Origin: Octopus vulgaris | Taxonomy: Eukaryota | Reading direction: 5' to 3' | DNA: 64,000 nt | NCBI GenBank assembly: GCA_951406725.2 | Contig: OX597823.1 | Coordinates: 6,386,001 to 6,450,000, forward strand | Shown: piece by piece, positions 9,245 through 63,584 of the stretch | Layout of the letters: the number at the start of each line of letters is the position of its first letter | How positions within the stretch are numbered: position 1 is the stretch's first letter | The notes under the pieces: generated by a model | The model's database searches: none | The model's input: the letters and a program-made list of their open reading frames with translations, nothing else | Told to the model about the DNA's origin: nothing | Made by a program: the position numbers and the translations under genes

Positions 9245-9316
9245 GAAATTGTTCGAAAATAGAATTAAGAATATCAAAGCAGGAACCTTCCGAAATCTTT
9301 CCAGTTTAACAAGTCT
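9245..9316 (+). CDS. 72-nt LRR exon, class A: KLFENRIKNIKAGTFRNLSSLTSL
   Basis: tttcag|...CT|gtaagt; phase 2-2; LRR consensus. Confidence 0.9.
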
Positions 9317-10406
9317 GTAAGTTGAATCAACCTCCTTTTATAGTATTTCTTTGACAATATCTTTCTAAATCTGTAATGTCTTTCTATAGACACAATTTAT
9401 AGTTTGTCACCTTCATCTCCTTTTATGACTTTTTCTGCTTCTTTAATTTTTTTTTTTGGCCTGTAGTTCTAGTACTTCCTCTTCTCCTGCTATTTATTCT
9501 CCATCTTATTCTTATTTTCCTACTTGTTCTTCCTCTCCTCTTCCCCATCTCTTCTTCTTCTTCTTCTTCTTCTTCTTCTTCTGCTTCTTCTTCTTCTTCT
9601 TCTTCTTCTTCTTCTTCTTCTTCTTCTTCTTCTTCTTCTTCTTCTTCTCCTTCTTCTCCTTCTTCTTCTTCTTCTTGCACTCACTCTTTCTTCATGTTCC
9701 TCGCTCTCTTCATTTCGTTCTATTTCTTGTTTCACGTTCACTCATCATTCTTCACTTCCCCTTCTTCTCCATTCCACATTCCTCTATTTTCCCTCTCTTC
9801 TGTTCTTGTTTTTCTTCCTCTTCCTCATGATCATCATGAGCATTATCATAATCATCTCCGTCGTCATCGTCTTGTTTTCTCGTCTTCCTTTTCACATCTC
9901 CTCCTTCTCCTCTTTGTCGTCGTCTGCCTCATCACCCTCTTCTTTCCCCTCTCTCTCGTCCCTCTCCCGCTCTTTCATTTGTTTGTTTCTTTAATATTTG
10001 TCTCATGTAAAAAAAACCTTCATCTTCTTCTTCGTCTTTCATCATAGTCAACGTCCACGTGATCAAGTTCTTCAATTTGTTCATGAAAAATCTTCATGAG
10101 GATCGCTATGTTCATCATTAGAATTATCATCATCACCATAAGCAGCATTAGTATCATCATCGTTATTCCCACTAAGTACATCACCCACCTCCTCATCCTC
10201 TGACATATCCGACCACCATCATCGTCGTCATCGTCACCTTTACTACGATCATCACCATCATCATGAGCGGCAGCAGCAGCACCATCATCAACATCATCAT
10301 CGTCTCCTAGTTCTTCCTTATCATAATCGTCGTTTTCTTTCCTCCTCCACATTCATCTAATTATTTCGTCATTATATTTTAAAAATTTACTCCGAATCAC
10401 ACTTTT

Positions 10407-11194
10407 GTATCTTCCCATAAAAATATACCATTTTCAAATGCATGAACCAAAGATCGGACTGCGACGGGATGAATTACCTGCATCACCTTGCTATAAAACA
10501 AGGTAGCAATTTCACTATGCTTAATGGAAATTCTATTCTTAGTGGAAATCTCGAAGAGTGCATTTCGATTTAAAGAGTTATTATTTTTCAAAGCTATAAT
10601 GGACGTGTCAGAGAGCATTATCATAATCATTATCATAATCATATTCGGCAAATACTTCTTTATGAGTTCAATAAAGGCGACAACGCAAAGGAACGTGCGA
10701 TGAGTAATAATACACTGCATGGGTGACGGTCAATAATCGTAAGCCAGTGTCAATACGGGTTACTGCAATTCCGTATCTGAGACTACAGCCTATACGACTA
10801 GCCTCGTCATGGAAGATCTGTAGACATCGACGAGGATGTTCTGCAAAACTGGTAGAACAAAATTCCATCGTATCTGTTGAGGAACTACCAGAGAATCTTG
10901 CATTTATTCATTCAACCATTCGACATCTGCGTGCCAGAGGAGAAGTCAGCAAATTGCCTCAATTGGCTCCTCACAAACTTCCCGAGACTAATCGTGCGCA
11001 GACAGCGAATGTGCATTTCTTTGCTGTCAAGTCTGACGAAAGATCCATTTTTGACCAAATAATTACTGGTGACGAAAAATGGATTCTCTAGAGGTATGTC
11101 CAGCGCAGAAGACAATGGTCAGGTAAAGTAGAAACACCGACAGACCAGACTAAAGGAAGTCTTCACCTACTTAAGGTGTTACAATTTGTTTGGT
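10407..11194 (+). mobile_element. Second mariner copy, 5' half
   Basis: TIR CTTCCCATAAA; IRQILLYEFNKG and ITGDEKWIL motifs; similar to 5282-5870; ends at a SINE. Confidence 0.8.
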
Positions 11195-11422
11195 GGCGAG
11201 CTGGCAGAAACGTTAGCACGCTAGGCGAAATGCGTAGCCGTATTTCGTCTGGCGCTACGTTCTGAGTTCAAACTCCGCCGAGGTCGACTTTGCCTTTCAT
11301 CCTTTCGGGGTCGATAAATTAAGTACCAGTTACGCACTGGGGTCGATGTAATTAACTTAATAACTATGTCTGTCCCTGTTTGTCCCGTCTATGTTTAGCC
11401 CCTTGTGAGTAGTAAAGAAATA
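11195..11422 (+). mobile_element. tRNA-derived SINE, family A
   Basis: GGCGAGCTGGCAGAA...GAGTTCAAA B-box-like head and TTGCCTTTCATCCTTTCGGGGTCGATAAA core; many copies in the window. Confidence 0.85.
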
Positions 11423-12296
11423 GGTATATGAGTGTGTGTGTGTGTGTGTTTGTGAGTCCTTATGTGTGTGTGTTTGTGAGTCCTTATGTGTGTGTGTAAG
11501 TACATAGGACCGTGTGACAGTTCAAGCAGCACATTTTATGTATGAGTATACATATGTTTATGTATACTCATATGTAAATAAACCCAATCTGTTTCTTAAA
11601 GGAGGGACATATTCATTATGCACAGAATGTTATTTACCCAAATGGAGGTTAGCGATTGGTTAAAATTGCCAAATGCTCGAAATTAAAGACGAAATATGTT
11701 ACAAACTATAGAATTTTTTCAATAAAGAGTAAATGATGTTTTATAAACACATTCTACCAGAATACGAAGTTTAAAAGTGTTTAGTTAACTAGAAATTGTG
11801 TTGAAAAGTGCCGTTCAAAAGGAAAAGTTCCCCATTTTGGACCAAATAGTTACTGGTGACATTTTATGTATGTGAATACATATGTTTATGTTCTGTGTAT
11901 GGCTGGTCCAATACTAGTGTATTCATGTCTGTATAACTCTTACTGCGTTTAGCTCTGGATCAACGATGAATGCCACATATCGATCTTCTAATTGTATGTT
12001 TAAAGCAAATTTAATCATATGCAAATATCTACAACCTTTAAACTCTTAGCCATTTACTTTCTTTATTTCTCTGAAAATATTTCCAGCTACGTAAATTCTT
12101 CACCATCACGATCATCAACGTTATCATTGCCATGGCTTTCCTCATCAACATAATTAAGATAAACACCATCAATACCACTACCATCATCATCAATATCATC
12201 ATGATACTCATCATCATCACCATTGTCTTTGTCATCTACCCTGTCACCATCAGCTTCGCTTTCCTAAATTTCTAGGCATTATATTTTCCGTTACAG

Positions 12297-12368
12297 ACAT
12301 TTGTATCAAAATCAAATCACTGAATTAGAAGTTGGATCTTTTCAAAATCTTCCCAGTTTAGAGACTCT
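12297..12368 (+). CDS. 72-nt LRR exon, class D: HLYQNQITELEVGSFQNLPSLETL
   Basis: ttacag|...CT|gtaagt. Confidence 0.9.
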
Positions 12369-12844
12369 GTAAGTTTAATTAGTTTTTTGATTCTCTTTTA
12401 TTGACAATATAATTCTAAACATTTAGTATCCTTCCATGCTTTCTTTTTTCTCTCACTCTCCTTAACTCATTTTATACGCTATATATACTCAGTCACTTTG
12501 TGAATGCTTGAGAAGGTGTTGTTTAGGTGCGTGTGTGTGAGGGTGTGTGAGAGTGTGTGAACATCAGTGTGTATGTTTTTGTATGAGTTTCTGATAATTA
12601 ATGCATATAATTTTGTGCATTATTGCGCATGTGTCAGTCTGTTACTTTCGTTATGAATTAACATACTCGAGTAACTGACTTGATTTCTTTATTATTTATT
12701 TTGTATATTATTTTTTATGTTTACTTCTCGATCAACGCTGATTAACTTTCATGGTTCTCCGTTCTAATTAATTATTGCGAATTACATTATTCATGTTGAA
12801 ATTTTGCCATGTTCCTAAGGTATGTTTCGATGTTATTAAAAAAT

Positions 12845-62071: not shown

Positions 62072-62377
62072 CTAGCAGTATCGCCGGGCGTTGCTCGGGT
62101 TTGTAGGGGAAATAACTATATAAGCATTTTTAGAGATTTACTTCCCTTATATAACCCAAGCGAAAATGCATTAAAAATGCGGAAAAATGATGGTAAGTTT
62201 TTTAAAATCGTAGACTCATCGTAGACTCGCGCTAATACACAGAAGGGCTTGATATAAATGACCACTATAAGATACCCGCTTTTGGTTAAACTGCACCGCA
62301 AAATGTGGGAGTAGTTAGGAATCTAAATCGGAGGAGACAGAGTCTCACACACACAACTTCAATTTTATATATAAAGA
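62072..62377 (-). mobile_element. Non-autonomous Helitron
   Basis: CTAG and CCGGGCGTTGCTCGG hairpin at left end, TATATAAAGA at right end. Confidence 0.75.
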
Positions 62378-62379
62378 TT

Positions 62380-62464
62380 AGATAGATAGATAGATAGATA
62401 GATAGATAGATAGATAGATAGATAGATAGATAGATAGATAGATAGATAGATAGATAGATAGATA
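62380..62464. repeat. (GATA)n microsatellite
   Basis: Direct reading. Confidence 0.95.
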
Positions 62465-63209
62465 CAAAAAATTCAGGGTGAATACTTGATAACTGTAAGC
62501 ACCTGTATATGCCAGCTAGTGGTATAGGTGATGAGGGAAAAAACGGTATGGATGTTTTGTTTTGGTGTCTCGCAATGCCATATACGCCTATTAGGATTTA
62601 CCTTCCCAATGAAACCCGTTTTTTTCCCAAACTTTTTCTCAAACCTGCTATAATGTAATACATGGCTTTGGTGTGGTAATTGTACGTGGCTGAAGAATGC
62701 TTTTGACCTACCTGTTATATCAATTATGCATAAATACAAATTGTTCAATAAAGCCAGAAACATATGTACCGCAAAATCCATTGCGTTCTGTTTTTCTTTT
62801 GACAGATAGATATAGATATATGAGTCTGTGTGCGCGCGCGAATGTGTGTGCACGCGTGTGTGTGTGTGCACGTGTTCGTGTATGTGTATTTGTGAATGTT
62901 TTTGTGCATTTCAGTGTATCAAATTGTATGTGAAATTCATTCTGTTTATCATGTGCAGTGTTCACCTGTCCACCAAAAAACATTAAACTCTACCACCACC
63001 ATTATCCATCTATTCCACCTCCTCCCCCTCGTCATTATCATCATCATCGTTATCATCATCATCATGAACATCATCAGCGCCATAAACTTTATGGAATTAA
63101 TAGTCATCGTATTCTACTTTCCATCGCTTCCATTCACTAATTATTTAGAGAAAATTTTGTCAAAAATATCTTCTATGCAATTTCTTATTAACTCCGTTTT
63201 ATGTTCCAG

Positions 63210-63281
63210 AGTTTTGCGTCATAATAACATTGAGGAAATCAAAGAAAATACCTTCCGAAATCTATCCAGTTTACAAAATCT
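63210..63281 (+). CDS. 72-nt LRR exon, class A: VLRHNNIEEIKENTFRNLSSLQNL
   Basis: ttccag|...CT|gtaagt. Confidence 0.92.
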
Positions 63282-63512
63282 GTAAGTTGAATAAGTATTT
63301 TTGTATAGGATTTCATTAACGATATTGTTGAAAATCTGCAATATCGTCCCATCTTTCATTTTAAGCTCCCTCATCCGACTTACTCCTCCTCATTATTACC
63401 ATCACCATTATCTACTTTGTTTTTCTTCCACCAAGTATTCGTTTGACAATAATATTGTATGTTGTACAACTCTTCGATAATTTCTGTTACCAATTAATAT
63501 TTTTTGTTACAG

Positions 63513-63584
63513 ATATTTGCAAAATAATAATATCGAAAAAATTGAGGTAACAGCCTTGCATGACCTGACCAGTTTGCGGATACT
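63513..63584 (+). CDS. 72-nt LRR exon, class C: YLQNNNIEKIEVTALHDLTSLRIL
   Basis: ttacag|...CT|gtaagt. Confidence 0.88.

Follow-up and report, generated by a model that had tools for sequence, protein, structure and literature searches.

Support for diversifying selection on the leucine-rich-repeat arm of a predicted octopus adhesion GPCR

Several genes carry leucine-rich repeats (LRRs) on separate exons, and an Octopus vulgaris locus with such an array raises the question of where new binding surfaces come from when an intron cuts every repeat. We analysed a window of 64,000 nt (assembly GCA_951406725.2, contig OX597823.1, positions 6,386,001 to 6,450,000). Its initial annotation proposed that each beta-strand is built from two exons, that exon skipping would create new surfaces, and that the exposed sites may be under diversifying selection, evolving faster than convex or neutral ones.

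The exon array and the gene around it

Exons were located by a position-weight scan of both strands of the window. Twenty-one intact exons (AG/72 nt/GT, laid out as 1 nt, 23 codons and 2 nt) start in it, all on the plus strand and 20 of them inside 9245-63584. Intact exons scored 84-133, the best other place reached at most 46.5 (two decayed copies, at 6443 and 7120), and scores on the minus strand were below zero. The 13 exon starts and seven exon ends quoted in the initial annotation were all recovered. In the list, features up to 63584 come from the scan, and "contig" is the RNA-like contig described under splicing.

6418..6514, +, decayed LRR exon remnant with stop codons, without in-register acceptor
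7120..7191, +, decayed LRR exon, frame open, acceptor AG gone
9245..9316, +, LRR exon KLFEN...LTS
12297..12368, +, LRR exon HLYQN...LET; left end of contig inferred at exon nt 39
20213..20284, +, LRR exon YLVYN...LTY
22526..22597, +, LRR exon HLGNN...LTK
24996..25067, +, LRR exon NLAGN...LTE
27948..28019, +, LRR exon YLDNN...LEK
32605..32676, +, LRR exon FMRYN...LST
35130..35201, +, LRR exon YLSYN...LRY
39782..39853, +, LRR exon YLSYN...LEY, split codon AT|N
47366..47437, +, LRR exon YLNGN...LGY; contig joins to 48771
48771..48842, +, LRR exon NLERN...LTK; contig joins to 48965
48965..49036, +, LRR exon YLNRN...LTY; contig joins to 52428
52428..52499, +, LRR exon NLGDN...LTK; contig joins to 54633
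54633..54704, +, LRR exon YLNSN...LQY; contig joins to 54880
54880..54951, +, LRR exon YVISN...LKY; contig joins to 57686
57686..57757, +, LRR exon FLNSN...LTN; contig joins to 59345
59345..59416, +, LRR exon NIQNN...LQT; contig joins to 61133
61133..61204, +, LRR exon DLSSN...LKN; next letters in contig are exon 63210
63210..63281, +, LRR exon VLRHN...LQN; tenth exon joined in contig
63513..63584, +, LRR exon YLQNN...LRI; right end of contig inferred at exon nt 24
63982..64000, +, LRR exon YLSDN..., first 19 nt; exon runs past window end

A counterpart of the remnant at 6418..6514 is present in the C26 paralog.

The array continues on both sides of the window. Downstream, 14 more intact 72-nt exons reach window-equivalent position 94168, followed by a terminal LRR exon at 96418 (window-equivalent) and then by LRRCT, Cys-rich and SEA-like modules, HRM, GAIN, GPS and 7TM, ending in a stop codon near 133971. 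Upstream, 19 further intact exons extend back to -43781, and an assembly gap 1 kb before the first exon interrupts the 5' end. The total is at least 55 intact exons. No second LRRNT, LRRCT or 7TM was found between these 55 exons, so they probably form one gene. A signal peptide/LRRNT exon for it was not found within 80 kb upstream or genome-wide near the locus. Its large N-terminal ectodomain is represented by the LRR array and stalk modules, and a signal-peptide exon is present in the C8 paralog; there, in a sequence free of gaps, it precedes 50 LRR exons, in frame throughout.

Spliced at AG/GT ends, 19 downstream exons gave an open frame of 934 aa that matched P0036 at 849 of 918 residues, one or two exon borders being uncertain (15 gap columns). 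The frame includes the GPS motif CSCDHLTSF with its canonical HL/T site, and the TM exons are open with 75-94% identity to P0001 (tblastn). Among relatives, Pfam 7tm_2 was matched by P0001 and P0003 (E 4e-30 and 9e-29) and GPS by the closest ones (E 1e-13); the best PDB sequence matches over GAIN-7TM were ADGRG2/ADGRG6. The predicted structure of the stalk comprises a Cys-rich and a beta-alpha-beta-beta-alpha-beta module; a Foldseek search matched only LRR proteins (LGR4, TLRs) and identified no stalk module. The initial annotation was correct about the LRR exon array and had left the gene unnamed; from the GAIN/GPS-7TM frame, we predict that the locus is an intact gene for an octopus adhesion GPCR and that these exons, at least 55 with one repeat each, encode its LRR arm. 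All 25 homolog matches were Octopus proteins and the genome has 54 GAIN matches; together with the LRR, GPS and 7TM content, this makes the gene a candidate member of the group 3 expansion discussed below. The domain order of ADGRA (GPR124/125) is LRR-Ig-HRM-GAIN. An ADGRA identity was rejected, as the Pfam matches of five relatives included no Ig family and other stalk modules were present instead; Ig, LRR and HBD domains are given for ADGRA in the available text of PMC2571103.

Variability and selection on the concave face

The last two nucleotides of the 276 intact family exons were CT in 239, AT in 18, TT in 17 and GT in two; therefore, the split codon nearly always encodes Leu L4 of LxxLxLxxNxL. 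The junction cuts this codon within x3-L4|x5, midway along the predicted beta-strand. DSSP placed the strand at x3-L4-x5 in an AlphaFold model of the relative P0028 (repeats at a pLDDT of about 80-95), and a P0034 model with a poor single-sequence fold (mean pLDDT 47) gave the same strand position. Both the exon ends and the P0028 strand bear out the proposal that one strand is made by two exons.

The described pattern of a near-fixed framework and variable x positions around the junction also held: entropy among the 21 window exons was 3.34 bits at x7, 2.96 at x8, 2.48 at x10, 2.47 at x3, 2.39 at x2 and 2.24 at x5, compared with 0 at N9 and L1 and 0.28 at F19 and L22. Some convex sites were equally variable in raw entropy (p20, 2.58 bits; p12 and p16, 2.37 bits), and variability alone is therefore no proof of selection. 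Exons 35130 and 39782, cited initially as close paralogs, do differ at 7 nt, five of them non-synonymous. The pair is weak evidence for concave variability because its concave differences amount to 2 nt (x2, R/E), with two further changed nucleotides at convex sites and one in the split framework codon, and because its exon starts are identical.

Selection was estimated across the family. From 308 exon-like matches, 276 intact exons were retained, then 270 with a score >30 (a filter removing terminal-type LRRs and one false match), then 245 after removal of identical exons, which were kept in the tree-free pair tests (270 exons); the dN/dS sets leave out 69-nt and decayed exons. Under an MG94 model with a fixed omega per class, the 245 unique exons yielded 1.97-2.03 for concave, 0.79-0.84 for convex and 0.21-0.22 for framework sites (LRT 83-93 against omega = 1 and 193-204 against convex). 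Concave omega was 1.88 (LRT 72) when double-nucleotide changes were allowed. The same three classes gave 2.22, 0.66 and 0.19 in 20 window exons (P = 2e-4) and 2.04, 0.71 and 0.20 in the 52 unique exons of the window gene. The confidence interval lay above 1 at six of six concave sites and at 0 of 17 others.

Recent duplicates offered a second estimate. We used 77 disjoint pairs; the upstream intron served to choose them, the downstream one to measure them. Divergence was 0.047 in introns, 0.048 at synonymous sites, and 0.150, 0.053 and 0.016 for concave, convex and framework non-synonymous change. Concave change was 3.1-fold that of introns and of synonymous sites (bootstrap of concave/pS, 2.4-4.4); the excess sat in codon positions 1-2 of x3, x5, x7 and x8, and purely synonymous change at concave codons was 0.043. 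The expectation that concave x sites outpace convex and neutral ones was borne out by dN/dS and by duplicate pairs: the site-class dN/dS proposed initially as a check placed concave sites above both. Diversifying selection on the concave face is supported, and change at the predicted binding face has outpaced neutral DNA by a factor of two to three.

The size of the effect depends on the treatment of synonymous rates. With these free per class, concave omega dropped to 1.40 (P = 0.004), with 1.06 (not significant) at x5/x7/x8/x10 and 2.55 at x2/x3; with per-site dS (grid fit), significance was left only at x2 and x3, and the 20 window exons with their own dS were not significant (LRT 1.1). In the 18 pairs outside the C29 loci, concave/pS was 1.51 (0.87-2.42), while concave/convex stayed at 1.24-4.31. 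A comparison of an O. bimaculoides protein with its apparent C8 ortholog showed no concave excess (14 of 72 versus 20 of 120 residues differing, P = 0.70). Could there be no positive selection at all, the exposed sites being merely unconstrained or the exon ends mutating faster, with omega inflated by short alignments and recombination? The flat ortholog comparison fits this account, as do near-neutral convex exposed sites (omega 0.7-0.9, with pN close to the intron value), a raised model-estimated synonymous rate at x5-x10 (1.6-1.9) and purely synonymous change of 0.060 in the first seven codons versus 0.038 in the middle. However, three times the intron rate is out of reach for unconstrained sites, the interleaved framework codons L6, N9 and L11 have a synonymous rate of 0.8-1.0, and in the 77 pairs third positions of x3/x5/x8 had 4-5 changes against 8-20 at positions 1-2. 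The duplicate pairs and codon-position counts largely refute a lack of selection, which we regard as very unlikely.

Splicing, shuffling and the source of new surfaces

Four runs, their RNA nature putative, were compared over 47250-62800. In run X2, filed under a different organism code from that of the genome, an unbranched RNA-like contig of 1282 nt joins 47366>48771>48965>52428>54633>54880>57686>59345>61133>63210. These ten exons are directly consecutive, the length and ends of the contig fit 18 consecutive exons, and under consecutive splicing both ends coincide exactly with predicted k=31 branch points. Runs X1, X4 and X9 had no exon joints among those listed for 47250-62800, which carries no weight on expression. 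Three odd joints among those listed (52499>52428, 52492>47361 and 52494>59387) fit upstream exons probably misplaced on look-alikes, judging by exon identities. In gene models, four O. sinensis isoforms (X1-X4) have the same LRRs, their differences being confined to the C-terminus, the 13 LRRs of P0028 follow the order of the C8 exons, and RefSeq-named models from two other octopus species have consecutive LRRs.

These data leave the proposal of skipping as a source of new surfaces unsupported, the sole covering contig and the models of two species being consecutive, though minor skipping may occur. If the exons were alternative cassettes, regulated or stochastic skipping would build many solenoids and composite strands per animal, comparable to brown-algal ROCO genes. 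Every exon is symmetric and would drop out in frame, decayed exons inside arrays must be skipped (25 of 308 matches were not intact), splice variants are reported for ROCO genes, whose exon geometry is identical (PMC11378527, in the text available), and rare isoforms are invisible in assembled contigs. Against this stand the single unbranched contig, consecutive over ten exons seen and 18 inferred, the look-alike fit of the odd joints, and the preserved LRR order in O. sinensis isoforms and P0028; we consider the cassette account distinctly unlikely. Choice of one exon per cluster, as in Dscam, is contradicted by the joining of ten neighbouring exons in one contig.

Rearrangement is evident in the germline. 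Exon number and order differ between paralogs, of 32 exon types whose successor could be typed, 13 are followed by two or more different types, and seven other arrays, followed through to their 3' end, hold 12 to 58 exon-like matches each. Germline duplication and deletion do re-pair half-strands. Templated diversification, in which short gene-conversion tracts would copy strand segments between exons in germline or soma as in VLR or chicken Ig genes, could account for some pairs with 1% intron divergence in which the opening 22 bases of the exon hold as many as 7 differences, and for two or more changes in 24 of 462 concave codons versus 19 of 1309 elsewhere. Yet most clustered pairs listed have at least one variant tract without an exact match in other types (286 exons), existing matches are mostly to a common, consensus-like version, and the X2 contig differs from the genome at three listed exon positions only. 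A donor search across these 286 exons (about 10 of roughly 50 family loci) found no convincing donors, and we judge this mechanism highly improbable.

We think it likely, instead, that the array is the selected LRR arm of an adhesion GPCR whose new surfaces are germline products of point mutation and exon duplication or deletion, not of skipping; inherited mutation and exon copying are the likely source because the one informative contig keeps exon order. Each exon is a phase 2-2 unit that keeps the reading frame and has its cut in the beta-strand Leu; numbers and orders of these units vary between paralogs. Unequal crossing-over in introns may add, remove and re-pair units, and each re-pairing would create a composite strand with x2 and x3 of one exon and x5, x7, x8 and x10 of another. 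After duplication, amino-acid change at x3, x5, x7 and x8 outruns that at synonymous and intron sites while the framework is kept. Ordered splicing, seen in one run for ten exons and probable for 18, would yield one long solenoid. The arm may bind an extracellular partner that itself changes, and signalling through the GAIN/GPS-7TM part would resemble that of other adhesion GPCRs.

Possible roles and comparison with known systems

Adhesion GPCRs are usually regarded as conserved developmental receptors. In this expanded octopus family, LRR arms reach at least 55 repeats (at least about 1,300 residues for the window gene), and the predicted binding face resembles, in the way it evolves, that of candidate immune receptors in plants and algae. 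The window gene is a testable candidate for antibody-free recognition of changing partners by a cephalopod, or for cell labelling. The chances that the putative ligands are foreign molecules (microbe, parasite or prey) are about even; a cell-identity or wiring code is possible but less probable, and escape from a receptor-using pathogen, or another role, seems unlikely. A repertoire of about 50 giant germline-diversified LRR receptors on G-protein signalling, extended in a Dscam-like manner by tissue-limited skipping (immune, or neuronal/sucker identity), strikes us as rather improbable; the skipping idea is attractive and currently unsupported.

Agnathan VLRs have LRR modules of 24 residues whose concave face is hypervariable; the germline gene is incomplete and filled from flanking cassettes, and the product has a GPI anchor. 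Arthropod Dscam has tandem exon arrays in a surface receptor. Unlike either, the octopus modules are exons that belong to a complete gene and are spliced in the ordinary way, one with another, and neither the genome nor the one contig gave signs of somatic assembly or of a mutually exclusive choice. Cassette filling of the VLR type was ruled out, the modules being spliced exons inside a 7TM gene.

The receptor family is already published; giant selected LRR arrays were not found in the literature. Octopus adhesion GPCR group 3 (Ritschard et al. 2019, PMC6408891) has GPS and 7TM, a tandem expansion in octopus, LRRs in five of 22 sequences and branch-level omega above 1. That study found no selected sites, whereas the window family shows concave-face selection, and LRR matches in its supplement end at residue 533 or before, as opposed to at least 55 single-LRR exons here; its available text describes neither arrays of 55 or more such exons nor concave-face selection. 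Database models of the family mostly have 0-13 LRRs. Present annotations retain only a few of the LRR exons, which may explain the null published site test (PMC6408891).

The nearest match in mechanism is the brown-algal ROCO family (Zambounis et al. 2012, PMC3341825; Teng et al. 2024, PMC11378527), for which the available text gives 72-bp phase-2 exons (nt 3-71 being 23 residues by the paper's count), up to 49 repeats, exon shuffling and concave positive selection. The octopus array shares the 72-bp phase-2 one-repeat exons, the variable number and order, and concave positive selection, the last weakened by class-specific dS and the flat ortholog comparison. ROCO proteins are LRR-ROC-COR GTPases, whereas the octopus gene encodes a predicted 7TM receptor with a downstream GAIN-7TM part and without ROC-COR; splice variants are reported for ROCO (PMC11378527), in contrast to one consecutive octopus contig from assemblies in which rare forms are lost. 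Arrays of 90-bp phase-2 LRR exons in Tetrahymena (PMC6564038) have a common junction codon and 1-51 exons per gene, with unequal crossing-over proposed, but belong to another repeat class and length, without a GPCR module. The available text of PMC11863921 held nothing on LRR exon phase.

Rice LRR receptor kinases (PMC3050792, in the portion available) also have 72-nt exons. Their phase-2 intron falls in the first Leu of xxLxLxx, exactly where the octopus junction lies, and their selected sites are mostly in xxLxLxx. In rice these sites occur mostly in intron-poor genes and split LRRs were suggested to limit variation, whereas the split octopus exons are selected. The octopus junction position is that of the ordinary LRR phase-2 intron, reported in the same Leu for rice LRR kinases and brown-algal ROCO genes, and no special design.

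LRR exons and the position of their junctions

A profile scan of both strands of the window (C10:6386001-6450000 in the 2.8-Gb genome) detected 21 intact 72-nt exons, bounded by AG and GT and all on the plus strand, 20 of which lie within 9245..63584. Other features of the window were as follows.

Minor features of the window
6418-6514 and 7120: decayed LRR exon copies (profile scan of the window)
47310-47345: short, incomplete copy of the start of an exon and its acceptor, immediately 5' of exon 47366
53488-54240: 51-bp tandem repeat, at least 12 copies, in the intron that separates exon 52428 from exon 54633
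~550-3730 (minus strand), 10900-11200, 13300-14500 and 41300-42300 (minus strand): intron fragments that we take to be transposon-like (reverse-transcriptase-, mariner- and GIY-YIG-like motifs)

Each intact exon codes for a single 24-residue LRR and consists of 1 nt, 23 codons and 2 nt. The terminal two bases were CT in 239 of 276 intact family exons, so the split codon is that of Leu L4 in LxxLxLxxNxL. In the AlphaFold model of a relative, the O. bimaculoides protein P0028, x3-L4-x5 was assigned to a DSSP strand in every repeat, which places the splice junction in the middle of the modelled beta-strand. The exon-start and exon-end sequences listed in the initial annotation were correct. The concave side of an LRR is formed by x2, x3, x5, x7, x8, and x10.

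The position of the junction is unremarkable, as the same phase-2 Leu junction occurs in rice and brown-algal genes. According to the respective papers, the 72-nt exons of rice LRR kinases are flanked by phase-2 introns that interrupt the first Leu of xxLxLxx (PMC3050792), Tetrahymena has phase-2 arrays of 90-bp exons (PMC6564038), and brown-algal ROCOs combine 72-bp phase-2 exons with shuffling, splice variants, and selection at sites placed at LRR concave positions (PMC3341825, PMC11378527). The same ROCO literature mentions phase-2 introns in gonadotrophin receptors. Mechanistically, the octopus array resembles ROCO exon shuffling, but its gene belongs to the adhesion GPCRs.

An adhesion GPCR family with long exon arrays

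With flanking DNA scanned, the whole array comprised 54 intact exons and a terminal LRR exon, at -43781 to 96489 in window-equivalent coordinates (counted on beyond the window). Because a 100-N assembly gap (-44862..-44763) lies 1 kb 5' of the first array exon, the array lacks its 5' end and this number of exons is a minimum. Two further long arrays also begin just after 100-N gaps (C26:14966985 and C29:14229549 of the same assembly), so the same applies to all three.

The 19 exons 3' of the array yielded an open 934-aa spliced frame identical to database protein P0036 at 849 of 918 residues. It encodes, in order, LRRCT, a Cys-rich module, a module that we take to be SEA-like from its predicted fold pattern, HRM, GAIN, the GPS motif CSCDHLTSF, and seven TM helices. 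The window gene is an adhesion GPCR. The Cys-rich and SEA-like modules (window-equivalent 102204-109385, genomic pieces L004-L005) had no Pfam match, and the structure model of the former, which presumably resembles the three-finger/Ly6 pattern, was of low confidence. SEA-like/HRM units were repeated in some paralogs (P0013, P0028).

Every homologous protein found was named from Octopus species. The GAIN exon had at least 54 genome matches and the LRRNT exon at least about 50. A gap-free paralog on C8 showed the full plan, beginning with signal peptide/LRRNT and running through 50 in-frame LRR exons into the same stalk. Other paralogs contained 12, 17, 30, 34, 37, and 58 exon-like matches; the array counts come from some 10 of the roughly 50 loci, including two that were covered in part only. 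Gene models P0001, P0012, and P0029 retain just 2-4 LRR exons; the genomic arrays are far longer (C26 has 31 intact LRR exons, and the C29 locus matched by P0029 has 17), and the ectodomains of the family look under-annotated in databases. Models P0034, P0035, P0038, P0040, P0026, and P0028 stop short of GAIN/7TM and may represent secreted forms or short-scaffold products. The opposite strand carries a second member of the family about 230 kb further downstream (C10:6749650-6822500, minus), and a presumably ankyrin-like ORF fragment lies at window-equivalent ~174000 (near the end of L011, minus).

Judged by its Octopus homologs, its GAIN matches and its LRR, GPS and 7TM content, the family very likely corresponds to group 3 of Ritschard et al. 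2019. That paper describes the group as expanded in octopuses, with LRR in 5 of 22 sequences and expression in axial nerve cord, suckers, skin, and gills; no selected sites were detected in it (PMC6408891). In the literature searched, which comprised non-subscription papers and left aside the Dryad data of PMC6408891, we found no account of giant LRR exon arrays under positive selection in octopus adhesion GPCRs.

Selection at concave positions

Selection was estimated by fitting an MG94 codon model, in which the synonymous rate was shared, to a tree built from exons and flanks. For 245 unique exons, omega was 1.97-2.03 at concave, 0.79-0.84 at convex, and 0.21-0.22 at framework positions (LRT 83-93 versus omega = 1); the concave value was 1.88 once double-nucleotide changes were allowed. 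The 20 exons of the initial annotation alone gave 2.22, 0.66, and 0.19, respectively (P = 2e-4), and six per-locus fits gave concave values of 1.45-2.48 (P < 0.05 in five). Among the 23 positions fitted, the interval was wholly above 1 at all six concave positions (x2 1.5, x3 3.0, x5 2.3, x7 2.0, x8 2.0, x10 1.5) and at none of the other 17. The diversifying selection proposed initially is supported by site class, concave dN/dS exceeding both convex and neutral values. Of the two close paralogs put forward at the time, 35130 and 39782, the difference of 7 nt, 5 of them non-synonymous, was correct, but just 2 of the 7 fell at concave sites. Convex exposed sites were near neutral in all arrays (omega 0.7-0.9; pN 0.053 versus intron 0.047), and strong conservation is therefore confined to 7 framework codons.

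With a class-specific synonymous rate, concave omega dropped to 1.40 (P = 0.004), with 1.06 for x5-x10 and 2.55 for x2-x3; with per-site dS, x2 and x3 alone remained significant. As inter-exon recombination can bias trees, we added pairwise counts on disjoint recent-duplicate pairs, picked by the similarity of one intron, with divergence measured on the other. In 77 pairs, divergence was 0.047 for introns, 0.048 for synonymous, 0.150 for concave replacement, 0.053 for convex, and 0.016 for framework changes (bootstrap concave/pS 2.4-4.4). The concave excess was present in pairs from one gene and from different genes alike, and in both proximal and distal repeats; inside the window gene, 10 pairs gave 0.195 versus a pS of 0.082 (P = 0.006), but with the C29 loci left out, 18 pairs gave a concave/pS of 0.87-2.42. 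A mutation hot spot is argued against by the peak of differences at codon positions 1-2 of x3, x5, x7, and x8 and by purely synonymous change of 0.043 at concave codons, and the analysis suggests that the raised model dS stems from multi-step codon paths. In one ortholog comparison, of O. bimaculoides P0028 with the last 12 matched C8 repeats, the concave excess was absent (14/72 versus 20/120), so acceleration may follow duplication rather than act steadily.

Germline reordering and splicing of exons

When exons were typed by their introns, we observed block duplications within the window gene and blocks common to several genes but differently ordered; 13 of 32 exon types had more than one successor type. 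Every such reordering joins x2 and x3 from one exon to x5-x10 from a different one. The composite strands anticipated in the initial annotation therefore hold at the germline level, as re-paired exons. Clustered differences mostly had no exact donor among other exon types; for the loci covered, point mutation is thus a better explanation than templated conversion. Three genes on three contigs have their last 10-12 LRR exons and their GAIN exon (95-97% identical) in common, and this 3' sharing with differing distal arrays is mosaic gene duplication.

Shared 3' LRR blocks (distal arrays differ)
window-equivalent 72528-94168
C26:15032937-15063712
C29:14339360-14323744

A four-exon block of ~9.6 kb, each copy including one exon with a TT donor, was repeated several times near-unchanged at C29:14.17-14.23 Mb (L053-L058), either through very recent amplification or as an assembly effect. 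Seven LRR exon variants were one codon shorter and in frame, with a matching shorter repeat in P0028.

69-nt LRR exons
C29: 14133641, 14113121, 14093696, 15122180, 15141413, 15158387
C8: 79154883

Splicing was assessed from four sequencing runs (X1, X2, X4, X9; presumed RNA, assembled contigs only) mapped on window 47250-62800. X2 gave one 1282-nt contig (depth 245) with nine exons joined in order and then letters of exon 63210; seven joints were listed as GT..AG, and the eighth was offset by a silent base change. Assuming that all intact exons are spliced consecutively, a contig of this layout would begin at nt 39 of exon 12297 and finish at nt 24 of exon 63513; these two positions match exactly the predicted k=31 branch points. 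The right-end branch point is unique at its offset; the left offset is common to ten exons, so 9245 is a possible alternative for the partial first exon. Three odd joints in this contig fit upstream exons misplaced on look-alikes. No LRR-LRR skip joint was among the joints listed, beyond which lay 199 more, in assembled contigs, which drop rare forms, and X1, X4, and X9 had no exon joints among those listed for 47250-62800. Four O. sinensis isoform models had identical LRRs. Full inclusion is thus the dominant form in the X2 sample, and minor or tissue-specific skipping may occur alongside. The feature noted initially is confirmed, and the selection claim withstood the refutation test set for it; exon skipping as a source of new surfaces is unsupported, the X2 contig being consecutive. 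The right end of this contig coincides with a 30-mer also present in C8 junctions 79239144 and 79211236 (versus window 63210-63536), which hints that the C8 paralog, or a gene like it, is expressed and consecutively spliced in X2 as well.
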